Of a stretch of DNA of 64,000 nt, positions 840-9,671 are shown in pieces (the first letter of the stretch is position 1; every line of letters starts with the position of its first letter). Origin of the DNA: an uncultured Chitinophagaceae bacterium (GTDB lineage Bacteria; Bacteroidota; Ignavibacteria; UBA10030; UBA8401); assembly GCA_964371615.1 (NCBI GenBank), contig CAYJMS010000003.1, forward strand, positions 212-64,211. The letters are read 5' to 3'. The notes beneath the pieces were generated by a model. It ran no database searches, was not told where the DNA came from, and saw only the letters and a program-made list of their open reading frames with translations. Both the position numbers and the translations under genes were made by a program.

Positions 840-1004
840 GCCTAACACGTCGCTCAAGCGGACGTTGTAACCGCGCCCGCACTTAATATTCGAGTGTTGA
901 GTAATAAACCAACGCCATACGATGCGGGGAAGAAACAAGCAAATCAATCAACAGTCGCGGCGCGCAAAAGCGTTACAACGCCGCTTAGTTCCCATCCGTT
1001 AAGT
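840..1004 (+). repeat. attC site 1 (intact, 165 bp)
   Basis: R'' GCCTAAC 840-846; R' GTTAAGT 998-1004; CTcAAGCGGaCGTTGTAAC pairs with GTTACAACGCCGCTTAG, leaving two extrahelical bases (G and T on the bottom strand). Confidence 0.92.
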
Positions 1005-1807: not shown

Positions 1808-1970
1808 GCCTAACACGTCGCTCAACCTGAGGTTACAATCGCGATCGTGTCAGAACTGAATTTATCGAGAAATCTAAACACAGATAGCTACACGAAACAG
1901 CATATTAAACTAAAAACGGACTGCAGCCCGCTAAAACATTGCATCGCAGGTTATCTCTAGTCCGTTCGGC
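1808..1970 (+). repeat. attC site 2 (163 bp)
   Basis: R'' GCCTAAC then ACGTCGCTCAA identical to site 1; AACCTG/CAGGTT L boxes; R' GTTCGGC 1964-1970. Confidence 0.85.
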
Positions 1971-3101: not shown

Positions 3102-3980
3102 ACGAAAAATATCACTTTAACAATAATTTTGGCATTGATTGTCGGGTGTCAAAAAGCAACATCAATAATAACTCCAAGTAATGATACAACCGGTAGTATT
3201 ATTATACTCAATAGTATAGCAATGAATATTTTTGGGATTGTAAATACCGATACGATTTATGCAGACCAATCCATTATTATGATTGACAGTATAAATGGAT
3301 ATTCGAATGGTTTGATAACACAAGGAGATGGACGATATTTATTACTTAATAAGTCCAAAGGAAAACATTATATCAATATTGAGCATCCCTTTTTTTATAT
3401 GTTTGACTCAGTTATGGATATTACATCTAAAACAATAAATATTAAATTAATTCCAAAAGTAGCGGACTTTCTTCCACTAAAAGTTGGAAACAACTGGATA
3501 TACCAATTTAAAACTAATTCATATGATCATGGGGTCCCTCCGAGGAGGCGCACATCCGGAGTAATTTCAGTTACAATCGATTCAGTATCTTCATCCCCCG
3601 GTCCATATTACATATATAAATACTGGTATGTAAAACAGGTGGAAATAGACACTCTTTATTATGTCGACAATCCCATTGTTCCCCCAGATTCTTTACGATA
3701 TACCAATGTTGAACGACATTATACAATAATTGAAGACTATAGACATGATACTCGATCAAGCATCTCAAATAATGTTTATGACCCATTTATTTTCTTTGAA
3801 AATTTGTATTACTATCCACGTTATAGAATACCGGATAATTCGGGGAATATCGTAGATCACGACAATAATAAATACACAAAAAATATTGGATTTATAGAAT
3901 CAAACATCACTTCGTCTGATCCCAATTATGGGACATATTATGAAAGACAGTATTGGTTAATTTCGTCAAATTTAAAATAA
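3102..3980 (+). CDS. Putative lipoprotein (start codon appears as ACG)
   Basis: In-frame ACG-KNITLTIILALIVG|C gives a complete lipoprotein signal; the ORF track starts later at TTG 3129. Confidence 0.7.
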   Translation, partial: TKNITLTIILALIVGCQKATSIITPSNDTTGSIIILNSIAMNIFGIVNTDTIYADQSIIMIDSINGYSNGLITQGDGRYLLLNKSKGKHYINIEHPFFYMFDSVMDITSKTINIKLIPKVADFLPLKVGNNWIYQFKTNSYDHGVPPRRRTSGVISVTIDSVSSSPGPYYIYKYWYVKQVEIDTLYYVDNPIVPPDSLRYTNVERHYTIIEDYRHDTRSSISNNVYDPFIFFENLYYYPRYRIPDNSGNIVDHDNNKYTKNIGFIESNITSSDPNYGTYYERQYWLISSNLK

Positions 3981-4057
3981 TATTTTGTGCCGTAACCAGG
4001 TACTGTGTAAAAAGTCAAGAATAAGAACGTAACTATTTCAAAGAACACGACAACAGA

Positions 4058-5068
4058 TTAGCGAAGACCAAAATCACGATCATAAGGGACGTTATTTTTC
4101 CAAAGAGTATAAATCAGCAGCAGTAATTTCCGAGCAACAGCAATCAGAGCCAGTTTTTTGTTTTTGCCTTTAGCAATCAATCGTTGATAGAGCGCCTTCA
4201 TTTGTGGATTATGCCGCACGGCAGACAGGGCAGGCATGAAGACGGCATGGCGTAAGAACCTATTCCCTTTTTTAGAGATGGAGGTTTTCCCTCTTTTTAG
4301 GCCCGAATCGTTAAAGACCACGTCATAGCCGGAATAACTGGCAAGTTGTTTTTGTTTAGTTACGAGTTTGAAGCACTGAGTCTCAGCCAGGACCGAGACG
4401 ACAGTCATAAAACCGATTCCTTTTGCCGTGCAGATGTTGGGAACCCGTTCACAAAGGATCGTATCAGTATCAATCAGTTCATGGAGTTCCTGTTCGATCT
4501 GAGCGAGTTGTTTCTCGAGCAAGGCGATAGTTTGCTGTTTGCGTTTAAGAGTTGACTTCAGAGGCTGAAAAGAGTATTTCAGGGCATGTCGCTGGTTTTT
4601 AATTTGGGTGATGGTCTCTTTCAAAGCGTGATATTCTCTGGTCAAGGCCTGCATGGATTTCATGGTTTCGGTAGGCGGAGTCCAGAGATTGAGTTCACGT
4701 TCCAACCCAAAGCGGGTGATCGCAGCAGAATCCAACGGATCGGTTTTGGATTTGGAAGTGAGGGATTTACAATAGTTTTTGATCTTATTCGGCAGAACAA
4801 CGGCAACAGAGCAATGATTTTCAACCAGGAAGTATGCAAGTTGCTGATAATAAATGCCGGTGGCTTCCATAACAAAGATGAGCGGGAGGTCGGGAGAAAT
4901 ACCCGCCGATCGGGTCCATTTCAATAGTTTTTTGAATCCTGACAATACATTATCGAACGATTGATCCGGTGTAAGAACAATGTGGTGCTTGGGATCAATG
5001 GTTCCGAACCGGACGTTGAATGTGTCCATGGCAATATCAATACCGACGATTTGTTTTAGGATACTCAT
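4058..5068 (-). CDS. IS110-family DEDD recombinase/transposase
   Basis: GIDIA, MEATG, KTDPLDS (DEDD RuvC-like); C-terminal SYSG...DSG...ISKKGNRFLR; AAGGAG RBS. Confidence 0.96.
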   Translation of the reverse strand: MSILKQIVGIDIAMDTFNVRFGTIDPKHHIVLTPDQSFDNVLSGFKKLLKWTRSAGISPDLPLIFVMEATGIYYQQLAYFLVENHCSVAVVLPNKIKNYCKSLTSKSKTDPLDSAAITRFGLERELNLWTPPTETMKSMQALTREYHALKETITQIKNQRHALKYSFQPLKSTLKRKQQTIALLEKQLAQIEQELHELIDTDTILCERVPNICTAKGIGFMTVVSVLAETQCFKLVTKQKQLASYSGYDVVFNDSGLKRGKTSISKKGNRFLRHAVFMPALSAVRHNPQMKALYQRLIAKGKNKKLALIAVARKLLLLIYTLWKNNVPYDRDFGLR

Positions 5069-5104
5069 AGAAAAACTCCTTATGTTTGGAGAGAAAATAA
5101 GGGT

Positions 5105-5343
5105 TCATTGGCACTTTCAGTGGTGATCTTGACTCGTCACATTATACAGGATTCCCGTTAATAGGATCCTAAAGTACTGTTCAGATTCTGCTGAAAATAC
5201 AAAGTCATAGGGAGGACGTCTTCTGGTTAACGATATTCTTTCCTGCTTGAAAGATATCTAGTCGCTCTTGCCTCTCCTATGACTTTGCCAATGTTTATTC
5301 GCCGATTCATTGGCGAAGACTTACAATACGGGGTTTTGATACT
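5105..5343 (-). ncRNA. Predicted bridge RNA of the IS110 element (ends approximate)
   Basis: 5' hairpin 5287-5314; target loop closed by 5200-5215/5271-5287 with guides at 5260-5267 and 5223-5229; donor loop with guides at 5172-5180 and 5133-5137. Confidence 0.85.
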
Positions 5344-5425
5344 TGGGTCAACATACGAGTCACTCACATTGACGTGACAACTTGGTTCCAGTCCGTTAGG
5401 CTGCACAGAAAGGAGTGCAATCGAT

Positions 5426-6097
5426 ATGAAAGACAAAATCATAATTGTATTTCTGCTTGTAATTGCGATTCTGCTTTCCTCATCGACAGGATGTAAGAAA
5501 AGTTCATCTTCACCTATCGAGCCTACTGATACCGATACAACCGGCGGCGGCCCTGTTGTTCGTAAGCCCAACATTTATTTATATCCGCAGACTAAAAGTA
5601 TTGTTACGGTAAAATTAGAGTTTCCGCTCGGCGGCAAAGTCATTGAATCAATACCTGCATATCAAGGTGAATGGGTTGTTGAAGTTGAACCATCCGGTAC
5701 AATAAGCGGTCAATACGATTATTTATTTTATGAGAGTCAAACTCCCGACGCATATCAGTATAATTCCGGCTGGATTATTGAGAAAGATAGTCTTGAATGG
5801 TTTTTCAGAGCCAATCTTTCTGCTGTCGGTTTTAATGAGCGTGAAATTACGCACTTTATTGACTATTGGATTCCACGACTCACGGTTTATTCACGCTATG
5901 TTATTTATCCACAATTTTCAAATGAAATTGAAAGAGTGATTAAACTACAAATCGATACAACGCCGGATAATTTATTGCGGCTTTTTTATGTCATTCAAGG
6001 TTCGGATACTATTACGCTGAACTTGTTTGAGCCGGTAATTCCGAAATTTGATAGAAGTGGTTTTGTAGCAACTGAGTGGGGTGTTATATTAAAATAA
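5426..6097 (+). CDS. Lipoprotein, KPxIYLYP-motif hypothetical family
   Basis: Signal peptide ...STG|C; RKPNIYLYP, YDYLFYE, FIDYWIPRL, EWG motifs; AAGGAG RBS. Confidence 0.8.
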   Translation: MKDKIIIVFLLVIAILLSSSTGCKKSSSSPIEPTDTDTTGGGPVVRKPNIYLYPQTKSIVTVKLEFPLGGKVIESIPAYQGEWVVEVEPSGTISGQYDYLFYESQTPDAYQYNSGWIIEKDSLEWFFRANLSAVGFNEREITHFIDYWIPRLTVYSRYVIYPQFSNEIERVIKLQIDTTPDNLLRLFYVIQGSDTITLNLFEPVIPKFDRSGFVATEWGVILK

Positions 6098-7782: not shown

Positions 7783-8448
7783 ATGAACCACTTGACATTT
7801 TGCATGTCGCTATTCGTTGTGAACGGGTTATTAAATTTATCTGTTGCTCAAGACCATCTTGAACCAGTTGAAGATTTATGGTCAGTCTACGATCTACGCG
7901 CGGTGGCTGAAGCACGAGATTCATTGCTCAAAGGATTTAAAATGCGACCTCTTGCCAGGGCGCTATCGATGCCGGAGGATGGTAATGCTTGGGCAGTGAG
8001 TCTTGAACAGAAATCCGATTCATCATTTATCGTGCATTCAGCAATTGCAAATGGTGGAATGGGCTTTCGTGCAATGGCCACCTCTGCTGAGAGACTTGCT
8101 ATGATTCGTAATACTACAGTACGTCGTTATAGCCAACCCATTGATAGCGGCAGGGCAAAAACAATAGCGCAAATATTTTATTCTCATATTTCGTCTGCAC
8201 GGTATCCTCGCTATGAATCCCGATACATTGATAACGCTATTGTATATTTCACAGCATCAAAGCCGGGTATTGCAGGCATACGTGAAGGAGTCATCTCGGC
8301 ACAAATATCCTTACCCGTGGAAGATAAAGTCCCAAAGAAATTTATATTATTTGCATTTACAATATTGGAGTACGGTATATCAAACAAACAAAATGCGCAA
8401 ATATATATGAGTAAATTGGATTCACTGTCTCGATTGCTGTCAAATTGA
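7783..8448 (+). CDS. Secreted hypothetical protein (cassette gene)
   Basis: Signal peptide ending SVA|QD; ATG 7783. Confidence 0.65.
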   Translation: MNHLTFCMSLFVVNGLLNLSVAQDHLEPVEDLWSVYDLRAVAEARDSLLKGFKMRPLARALSMPEDGNAWAVSLEQKSDSSFIVHSAIANGGMGFRAMATSAERLAMIRNTTVRRYSQPIDSGRAKTIAQIFYSHISSARYPRYESRYIDNAIVYFTASKPGIAGIREGVISAQISLPVEDKVPKKFILFAFTILEYGISNKQNAQIYMSKLDSLSRLLSN

Positions 8449-8449
8449 A

Positions 8450-8598
8450 ATCTCACAAGGTATTGTGTTAATATTCAAGAATATTTCACTAATTTTGCAA
8501 ACGCGGCGGCAGACGTAAACTGAAATATTCTACCGCACGCGGCTTACTTGTCCGCTCTACGAGTCGTAAACCTCCGGCGGAGATCCAGTCTGTGGACA
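8450..8598 (+). repeat. Degenerate attC site 9
   Basis: Same internal family motif (AAACTGAAATATTCTACCGCACGCGGCTTACTTGTCCG...GGCGGAGATCCAGTC); cores eroded. Confidence 0.5.
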
Positions 8599-8605
8599 AC
8601 GCATA

Positions 8606-9289
8606 ATGAAGTATTTACTAAAATATATTTTCATCGTTATCTCTTTAGTATTTTCACAACTCGACTTTATTTTGCATGCTCAACAGAGCGTCAGAAAAAA
8701 CATACGTGTGGGAATTGAATATGGCAGTTATTGTACTGCAAATAATGGAGGGTATACGTCTCAACCAGGTTTTTTGTTGGGCTATTTCACGGGTGTACCG
8801 TTATCCACCGATCCTAACAACTCAATGTATTTAGGCATTGAATTTAATTTTAAGAATACCATTTTATATAATCCCGGGGTGTCTCACATTATATGTGATC
8901 GATACAAATATCAAAATACGTACGACGAAAAATATAATATCTCGACCGTAGAGATTGGATTGCTGCCGGAGTATCGATTTGTCTTAAACAAAAACATTGT
9001 CGTTGGTATCTATGCCGGCGGAGCAGTTGGAATCGGAATGTATACACAACAACACAACCTGATCTCTCACATAAGGATTGATACTGTCCAGTATTCACAG
9101 TGGCTATTAGACGGTCCTTATGACGGCAATAATCTTCCTTTCATAGGAACGTACAATATTAATTGCGGAACAAATATTTATTATGACTGGCTGGTAATTG
9201 ATGTTCGATTTTCATTTCTCAATGATGTAATGAATCATAGCTCAAAAAGAATTAACCAGTTTTATATTTTATTTGGTGTTGTATTATAA
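8606..9289 (+). CDS. Outer-membrane beta-barrel-like protein
   Basis: Signal peptide; amphipathic strands (YLGIEFNF, PEYRF, GIYAGGAVGIG). Confidence 0.7.
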   Translation: MKYLLKYIFIVISLVFSQLDFILHAQQSVRKNIRVGIEYGSYCTANNGGYTSQPGFLLGYFTGVPLSTDPNNSMYLGIEFNFKNTILYNPGVSHIICDRYKYQNTYDEKYNISTVEIGLLPEYRFVLNKNIVVGIYAGGAVGIGMYTQQHNLISHIRIDTVQYSQWLLDGPYDGNNLPFIGTYNINCGTNIYYDWLVIDVRFSFLNDVMNHSSKRINQFYILFGVVL

Positions 9290-9419
9290 TCTTTGGATAC
9301 TTCAATTAGCATGATGGACGCTGCTGTGAAGTATTCTTTAATTATAGGTAGTCGATGATCTCGTGAAAGTATTTTTCGGTAATAGATAAGAGGCTGACCG
9401 TGTATGCGGTTTTAGCCAC
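9290..9419 (-). pseudogene. Truncated RelE/ParE toxin remnant
   Basis: GTG overlapping antitoxin end; MAKTAYTVSLLSITEKYFHEIIDYL* resembles a ParE N-terminus, then stop/truncation. Confidence 0.6.
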
Positions 9420-9671
9420 GAATCTTTTTCCTCATGTCTTTCATGATCTTTTCAAGAGATCGGCCTTTGTCACCGGCAACGCGTTGCGATTCGGCCGCCG
9501 CAAGTATAATTCGAGATTTTTCTACATATGGCTGTATTGAGCGATGGACATCACCACCATATCTCCTTCGCCATTCTTAGTGATGAAGACCGGCTCATTG
9601 GATGAGTGAACAAAATTTGATATTTCGTTCGACTTATTTCGCGGGTCGGAAATGGGTCTGATCGTCGGCAT
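9412..9671 (-). pseudogene. Phd/YefM antitoxin pseudogene
   Basis: MPTIRPISDPRNKSNEISNFVHSSNEPVFITKNGEGDMVVMSIAQYSHM* then frameshifted LAAAESQRVAGDKGRSLEKIMKDMRKKIRG; AAGGAG RBS; operator-like palindrome TATCATG-AA-CATGATA 9702-9717. Confidence 0.8.

Follow-up and report, generated by a model that had tools for sequence, protein, structure and literature searches.

The target of the insertion sequence (IS) IS621 is a repetitive extragenic palindromic (REP)-type repeat. Two groups of related elements, IS110 and IS1111, are distinguished by the position of the non-coding RNA region, upstream in the former and downstream in the latter, and by the subterminal inverted repeats of 7-17 bp of IS1111 elements (PMC11208160, PMC11187229). 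The IS1111-attC elements insert at one end of integron attC sites in a fixed orientation, guided by a short RNA with complementarity to each strand of the target (PMC11187229). In ISEc21 the guide matching the bottom strand lies 5' and the guide matching the top strand 3', opposite to the order in IS1111 seekRNAs (PMC11187229). We analyzed an element, here called IS-A, in a 64,000-nt stretch of contig CAYJMS010000003.1 (GenBank assembly GCA_964371615.1), referred to as the window. Judging from its sequence, IS-A is very probably an IS110-group, IS621-like RNA-guided IS with guides written for integron attC sites.

Recombinase, ends, and predicted bridge RNA

IS-A occupies 4000-5357 on the minus strand, with 1358 bp between two CT cores (1360 bp including one core). 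On the plus strand it is flanked by TAACC (3993-3997) and AG (3998-3999) on one side and by a second AG (5358-5359) and TCACTC (5360-5365) on the other. Read on the IS strand, with a slash for the edge of the core, the junctions are GAGTGA-CT/CGTATG (5365-5358/5357) and ACAGTAC-CT/GGTTA (4006-3998/3997-3993). Both the right-junction copy of the core (3998-3999, minus strand) and the left-junction copy (5358-5359, minus strand) were read from the sequence, and CT was present at both junctions in 23/23 aligned relatives. The element consists of a right end of 58 nt (4000-4057), a recombinase gene (4058-5068), and a left non-coding end of 289 nt (5069-5357), all on the minus strand like the RNA features below. 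The right end carries the left-donor sequence ACAGTAC (4006-4000) and a -35-like TTGACT (4018-4013). The ends CGTATGTT... and ...ACAGTAC persisted even in relatives whose protein is about 42% identical, and the forms CT/CGTAT... and ...ACAG(T/C)AC-CT/ recurred throughout the fetched relatives.

The recombinase (P0001, 336 aa) matched the Pfam families PF01548 (DEDD_Tnp_IS110; 8.5e-24, 84.5 bits vs. a cut-off of 29) and PF02371 (Transposase_20; 8.3e-19, 68.2 bits vs. a cut-off of 21.3). Its best relatives of solved structure in the PDB were ISCro4 (1.2e-26) and IS621 (3.3e-25), with residues 8-331 aligned. Residues D11, E68, D110, D113, S265, and G268 were invariant or at least 90% conserved among 32 relatives and align with ISCro4; we take the four acidic residues and S265 to be the catalytic D, E, D, and D and the SG-finger Ser. 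The open reading frame (ORF) and every conserved residue are intact. We assign IS-A to the IS110 group because its long non-coding end is upstream of the gene (289 nt vs. 58 nt downstream), because an inverted-word check of the terminal 60 nt found no terminal or subterminal inverted repeat as long as 6 bp, and because the guides are in the IS110-type order, with the top-strand-matching guide 3' of the bottom-strand-matching guide.

The left end is predicted to encode a bridge RNA, as indicated by its fold and alignment. The predicted core of about 188 nt (5106-5293) is closed by CATTGGCA and TGCCAATG, based on the alignment, RNAalifold, and pair counts. The target-binding loop (5200-5287; stem arms 5287-5271/5215-5200), which draws on the guide-target comparison and permutations given below, holds the left target guide GAGCGACT (5267-5260), an inner hairpin (5259-5231), and the right target guide TTAACCAG (5230-5223), which contains TAACCAG at 5229-5223. 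In the donor-binding loop (5114-5197; stems 5197-5193/5118-5114 and 5186-5183/5129-5126), the left donor guide ACAGTAC (5180-5174) repeats the sequence of the right IS end. The right donor guide side of this loop comprises GTATAA (5147-5142) and ACGAG (5137-5133); the latter is complementary to CTCGT, which is made up of the core and the left end.

The minimum free energy (MFE) fold of the left end reached -72.9 kcal/mol (z = -3.2; 0/200 shuffles as good), with the stem arms 5287-5271/5215-5200 paired. We then aligned 23 left ends from copies with at least 51% protein identity, each located by pattern. RNAalifold returned four helices framing two internal loops, and 96.4% of cells paired in these helices, vs. 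42-56% when the partners were slid by 1-3 columns. Compensatory changes on both sides occurred in 19 of the 29 stem pairs, vs. 6-9 with partners slid, and 0/500 shuffles reached any of five covariation measures. Helices 1 and 2 of the target loop were 97.8% and 95.1% paired, with 15/20 pairs compensatory. RNA run X22 was uninformative on the bridge RNA: it held nothing on 5100-5300 and three 151-nt contigs on the recombinase gene, which come from relatives because they carry 4-16 differences.

A preliminary description of this locus, made from the sequence, had placed the junctions, core, stem, hairpin, and guides at coordinates that all hold on the sequence. Its proposal of an IS110-family recombinase agrees with the two Pfam domains and the ISCro4 and IS621 matches, its proposal of an IS110-group layout with the unequal non-coding ends, the lack of inverted repeats, and the ISEc21-type guide order; the RNAalifold check that it had suggested for the left end gave the two-loop fold. 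The donor-binding loop, the second copy at a contig break, and the atypical 53-nt occupied site (both described below) go beyond it.

Guides and targets among the relatives of IS-A

At the window copy, the left guide GAGCGACT agrees with the left flank GAGTGACT at 7/8 positions, and the right guide TAACCAG is the exact complement of CTGGTTA (7/7). We compared the loop columns of the 23 aligned copies with each copy's own flanks in 20,000 re-pairings, with the invariant core excluded; these statistics leave out most loci below 50% identity, where pattern extraction of the guides failed. The left guide matched the left flank at 115/154 positions (22 loci; permuted mean 73), and the complement of the right guide matched the right flank at 100/105 (21 loci; permuted mean 55.8). 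When one row was kept per distinct target (n = 18), 178/216 positions matched, vs. a permuted 99.5. None of these three values was reached in 20,000 re-pairings. In each copy, then, the loop segments follow the flanks of that copy.

Individual loci illustrate this pattern, and single-base guide changes accompany single-base target changes among the relatives. The same GAGCGCCT occurs in flank and guide of L047, and GAGGCGC is common to flank and guide in L053 and L057; the right flank of L057 is CT/TGTTAG, and its guide has the complement CTTGTTAG. Two loci (L049 and L051) are at a quite different target, ..GTCACT/CGTCAC, inside a region of AGTGACN heptamer-like repeats, and have matching guides. 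These two represent natural retargeting away from attC. The poorest rows each matched at 3/9 positions. For L063 and L065 this was through a one-column register shift. In L052 the guide is degenerate and a 22-nt insertion (TCCCGAAGGGATACCTTTGTGA) in the L'' region of its attC adjoins the IS, which may mean that the copy is dead or that a secondary event took place. The donor side is almost invariant in loop and ends, with ACGAG in 23/23 copies; donor covariation was seen once, as a T to C change in both right end and guide of L065.

The relatives were collected from several sources. Among 8000 candidate proteins scored, 5511 were related to P0001 at E <=1e-20; the best 120, its own protein aside, were 60-81% identical and mostly on contigs of 1.2-3 kb. 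An alignment-based scan of metagenomes confirmed 528 loci among 593 candidate stretches, and the best 80 (41-97% identity) were used here. One of these (L041) is a 97% identical copy in another attC of another sample. The single-protein search of assembled genomes gave one locus, in a Bacteroidota metagenome-assembled genome (MAG), at 78% identity. Among 401 genomes of the phylum, 13 including the source genome (G000) matched at E <=1e-60; the best other was 53% identical, and the loci of the 12 others were fetched.

Seventeen insertions with a right flank have at least 58% identity (the window copy, copy 2, L015, L041, L042, L044, L046, L047, and L049-L057). An R''-type right flank (complement G[G/T]TTA or TGTTAG) was found in 14 of them. 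The remaining three are L054, which abuts another IS inside an attC, and the retargeted L049 and L051. The 45 loci with both flanks were put through an ad hoc attC test, distinct from IntegronFinder, which asks for R-box complementarity of at least 5/7 and scores the L-box duplex energy. An R''-like box was found in 16/45 loci, and 9 of the 16 reached an L box of -10 kcal/mol or lower; the background was 64/1500 (4.3%) at random TAAC sites on contig C2. Against this background, L042, L047, L052, L053, L057, and copy 2 had full attC partners, and in L042 and L047 the entire attC folds into a hairpin. The 46-nt match for L041 is probably false, and the true R' of L056 was missed because its R box is a hybrid.

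Six loci at 47-50% identity have different guides, CTAAGCCT and TAACAAAG, and a site of the form ...CCTAACAA/AG/GCTTAGAGCTGAC..., which belongs to another attC family; one of this group, L073, has an R' of GTTAGGG and a strong L box (-16.2). We placed 80 recombinases on a quick maximum-likelihood tree, in which the group with at least 58% identity forms one clade (19 rows; Shimodaira-Hasegawa-like approximate likelihood ratio test support 100) of 16 attC rows, 2 retargeted rows, and 1 unassigned row. The 47-50% group forms a separate clade (support 93), and lineages with other targets fall between the two.

The earlier proposals that the guides spell the R''-L'' junction of an attC, and that flanks of homologues should be attC-like and covary with the guides, thus fit the 14/17 R''-type flanks and the re-pairing results, with the off-attC L049 and L051 having guides that match their own site. 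The FCB-like (Fibrobacteres, Chlorobi, and Bacteroidetes) host that had been suggested fits the Bacteroidota MAG, the sole named relative.

The integron array and its IS110-family insertions

The source genome encodes one integron integrase, on contig C4 (435859-436800; TIGR02249, 444 bits vs. a cut-off of 265; Pfam PF00589 and PF13495), and 0/14 control genomes passed the TIGR02249 cut-off. Divergent from the integrase on C4, ORFs on the plus strand alternate with repeats of 163-195 nt. These repeats are attC sites: they start with GCCTAAC-ACGTC-ACTCAAG, end with ...GCTTAGTTCCAGTCC-GTTAGGC, and carry both an R'' and an R' box. The first 5.4 kb of the window are the distal end of this integrase-linked array and contain three attC sites. 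The intact attC1 (840-1004, plus strand, 165 nt) and attC2 (1808-1970, plus strand, 163 nt) were identified by alignment with the array attC sites. The third, attC3, is divided by IS-A between the ORFs at 3129-3980 and 5426-6097. Its left part (3989-3997, plus strand) consists of the R'' GCCGTAAC followed by C, and 3997-3993 on the IS strand is the right target GGTTA. Its right part (5360-5401, plus strand) runs from the L'' TCACTCAC... to the R' GTTAGGC (5395-5401), and 5365-5360 on the IS strand is the left target GAGTGA. With one extra G, the R'' GCCGTAAC aligns with the GCCTAAC R'' of other array attC sites, and the 3' end TTCCAGTCCGTTAGGC equals the array attC consensus (family D5).

The array is continuous from C4 into the window across a second IS-A copy, as each contig end shares 55 bases, flank and core included, with the window: C4 ends in the sequence of 3993-4047, and C3 begins with that of 5307-5361. 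The break in the assembly falls at this repeated IS. Copy 2 thus bridges C4 and C3 immediately ahead of the window, and it interrupts a canonical attC of about 164 nt (C3:52-207). Its site reads CCCTAACC/AG/TCGCTCAAG..., with R'' CCCTAAC and R' GTTAGGC (C3:201-207), and folds with L''/L' and R''/R' paired (-19.4 kcal/mol). Its flanks, GAGCGA-CT-GGTTAGGG, are matched by the guides at 8/8 and 7/7 positions. Within the overlaps, C4 and C3 each carry 48-51 nt from a terminus of IS-A, with no difference from the window copy. Sequencing run X1, which is probably the source sample, has contigs with both flank pairs as loose ends at 3983 and 5366, and one zero-difference contig at about double depth covers the IS-A interior. 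The sole listed joint in the element (4143 to 4310, skipping 166) belongs to a decayed copy on C1.

The integrase-linked array, the R''/R' boxes, and the canonical attC of copy 2 bear out the attC target named in the preliminary description. It had also read the one guide mismatch as matching GTCGCTC of the intact attC1 and attC2. That heptamer is indeed present in both sites, but in the register TAAC-AC-GTCGCTC, in which the CT core is out of register. The exact 13-bp target had 0 unoccupied matches in the genome, which fits with the presence of only two IS-A copies. A loose target pattern gave 21 genome matches, 20 of them attC-like array sites; 0/21 had the required TG spacer and 4 kept the CT core.

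A second IS110-family element, IS-B, is on the minus strand within the same integrase-linked array (C4:~442090-443470; L011 ~8090-9470) and encodes a 335-aa recombinase. It has the IS1111 layout, with a non-coding region of about 300 nt downstream and an 8-bp subterminal inverted repeat. Its site, GAGTGACTG/.../GTTAGG, is 1-3 bp from the position used by IS-A, and the orientation is alike. IS-B is 28% identical to P0001 over 151 aa and matches IS621 and ISCro4 at 1.8e-7 and 1.8e-8, so that P0001 is closer to them by 17-18 orders of magnitude in E-value; these values agree with the earlier view that IS-A is independent of the IS1111 group. The best match of IS-B among 72,556 plasmids was 36% identical, and it is therefore no close relative of the clinical attC-targeting ISs. 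In locus L054 (1-3987), three IS110-family genes stand in tandem inside one attC, in the order third lineage, 12 nt of attC, IS-A relative, CT+G, and IS-B relative (73% identical to IS-B). The third lineage ends in ..TTGACTTTTTACATAAC and is 30% identical to P0001 over 143 aa. This third-lineage end was seen again in L055, 12-14 nt upstream of an IS-A relative.

Because the tree holds two separate attC clades, plus a nested escape to a non-attC repeat, we tentatively put forward a broader reading, which we consider plausible yet slightly short of probable: at least three unrelated IS110-family lineages would have come independently to use the attC of environmental (Bacteroidota-type) integrons as a shared landing pad, with the target loops of IS621-like bridge recombinases repeatedly re-written to follow different attC families. 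If true, this would be a natural and ongoing guide-reprogramming series; a hairpin in the target might act as a structural gate, and integron cassettes may become frozen or fused.

Several further observations concern the arrays and the genome. This integron has attC sites of unusual length (163-195 nt; window 840-1004 and 1808-1970, L011 3557-3745, and others) that form at least two sequence sub-families (D4 and D6). The cassette ORFs 3129-3980, 5426-6097, and 29-832 matched no Pfam family at E <=0.01, bar a sub-threshold DUF6814 match, and ORF 2007-2354 encodes a DUF4405 protein. A second array, with 12 attC-like sites of the same family, is at C1:196800-206210; no integron integrase above the cut-off was found nearby, and it is possibly an attC cluster without an integrase. 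Isolated attC-like sites occur at C4:63515 and C4:67977. The decayed IS-A-like remnant is outside the arrays, on the minus strand of C1 (~1280200-1280480; L014 ~2200-2480). It consists of recombinase 3' fragments that are 66-83% identical, with an internal deletion, and an intact right end (..ACACAGTAC-CT/GGTTTGGC).

Proposed mechanism, rival explanations, and known systems

By analogy with described elements, we infer how transcription, circle formation, catalysis, and an effect on cassette mobility might be connected. IS-A would excise as a circle, as IS621 and ISEc21 suggest. The abutted ends would bring TTGACT (4018-4013) to 17 nt from TATGTT (5355-5350) and form a promoter before the left end; such a role of a -35/-10 pair split across abutted ends has been described (PMC11208160). 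Transcription of the left end would give a bridge RNA of about 190 nt. The donor loop would pair with the junction of right end, CT, and left end, and the target loop with both strands of GAGCGA-CT-GGTTA, the R''/L'' junction of an attC. The DEDD/Ser recombinase would then swap strands at the CT core, giving insertion in a fixed orientation with the recombinase gene antisense to the cassettes. Insertion parts R'' from L''-R', and because R'' is cut away from the rest of the site, the attC should be disabled for the integron integrase.

Several observations weigh against an attC-guided IS-A. The left guide matches the window copy's own site at only 7/8 positions, and the site itself is irregular: attC3 (3989-3999 plus 5360-5401) is only 53 nt, atypically short, its MFE fold leaves R'' and R' unpaired without a canonical attC hairpin, its L-box score is only -7.1, and it looks like a degenerate terminal attC. 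The bridge RNA is a prediction from sequence, and Rfam gave 0 matches at the gathering threshold in the whole window and 0 at E up to 10 in 3900-5500. No circle junction or empty site was present among the run contigs, which show either poorly. The metagenome attC calls come from the ad hoc R-box/L-box test of the flanks, and the permutation figures overstate independence because the relatives share phylogeny.

Some of these points would be expected if IS-A were RNA-guided in origin and the window copy were now an inactive relic in a degenerate terminal attC, which we consider unlikely. The 7/8 match, the short site, the lack of free exact 13-mers and of loose matches with both spacer and core (0/21 with the TG spacer, 4 with the CT core), and the decayed copy at C1:~1280200 are in its favor, but the ORF and conserved residues are intact, the terminal 48-51 nt at the C4 and C3 ends do not differ from the window copy, run X1 has the zero-difference interior contig at about double depth, and the 97% identical L041 occupies another attC in another sample. 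Less likely still is that the target is chosen mainly by the folded attC or by the integron integrase, with RNA pairing in a minor role. Single-base changes in the guides follow those in the targets, and L049 and L051, nested in the attC clade, have moved to a non-attC repeat with matching new guides, even though attC sites are structured, three unrelated IS lineages are found at one attC region, and another IS110 element is reported to need a target stem-loop besides pairing (bioRxiv 10.64898/2026.03.19.712850). Because that stem-loop adds specificity for the other element, a structural contribution of attC is worth testing.

The two remaining explanations concern the identity of IS-A and the meaning of its location. 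IS-A shares the kind of target (one attC end) and the fixed orientation with ISKpn4, ISPst6, ISPa25, and their kin, and a seekRNA is known in that family (PMC11187229); that it is merely one of these IS1111-attC elements is nevertheless very improbable, given a long non-coding region that is upstream and not downstream, the lack of subterminal inverted repeats, the IS110 guide order, and a recombinase that matches IS621 and ISCro4 at about 1e-25, vs. 1.8e-7 and 1.8e-8 for the IS1111-like IS-B, to which it is only 28% identical over 151 aa. We give the least credence, and very little, to an incidental attC location, through chance or hitch-hiking, with coincidental guide matches. The single full copy in the assembled genome and the mismatch at the window site would suit it; against it are the second copy in a perfect-match attC, the R''-type flank in 14/17 close relatives, guide-flank matching that 0/20,000 permutations reach, and the correspondingly different guides of relatives with other targets. 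We thus retain the reading of IS-A as an IS621-like element with attC-specific guides.

On this reading, attC targeting by RNA guides is not confined to the IS1111 group but also occurs in the IS621-like IS110 group, whose bridge recombinases are used for genome writing. The orthologues also form a naturally occurring series in which guide and target can both be read, with at least 18 distinct targets in one alignment, that is useful for deriving reprogramming rules. In environmental chromosomal integrons, several IS lineages enter the cassette arrays at a single precise position, and the splitting of R'' from attC is a plausible route to immobilized or fused cassettes and to assembly breaks at arrays. 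In the literature searched (PMC11208160, PMC11187229, and PMC11089894, accessible portions), attC targeting was credited to the IS1111 group only, with ISfinder and supplementary target tables outside the scope of the search; the accessible text of bioRxiv 10.64898/2026.08.14.744561 has 0 mentions of integron or attC.

Within the literature searched, attC is a new class of natural target for an IS621-like bridge-RNA element; the mechanism is not new. Like IS621 and ISCro4, it has a recombinase of about 330 aa with DEDD and Tnp domains (E of 1e-25 to 1e-26), a long upstream non-coding end, a CT core, a -35/-10 pair split between the ends, and a predicted two-loop RNA; in both loops the 5' guide repeats the top strand and the 3' guide is its complement. 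It differs from them in its target (integron attC), in its host (a Bacteroidota-like environmental bacterium), and in that the protein similarity is distant. Like the IS1111-attC elements ISKpn4, ISPst6, and ISPa25, it is at one attC end and is site- and orientation-specific; unlike them, it has no downstream RNA region, no subterminal inverted repeat, and not that group's guide order. ISEc21, for which a seekRNA has been demonstrated by experiment, likewise takes its guide RNA from the upstream non-coding region, the match to the bottom strand preceding that to the top strand, and natural re-direction is known for one of its relatives (PMC11187229). It differs in that it inserts at a linear site within transposase genes of the IS3 family and encodes a larger transposase, of 358 aa (PMC11187229). 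Group IIC-attC introns are also an RNA-guided mobile lineage specialized for attC (PMC3001079); unlike IS-A, they are retro-elements with a wholly different mechanism and no homology to it.

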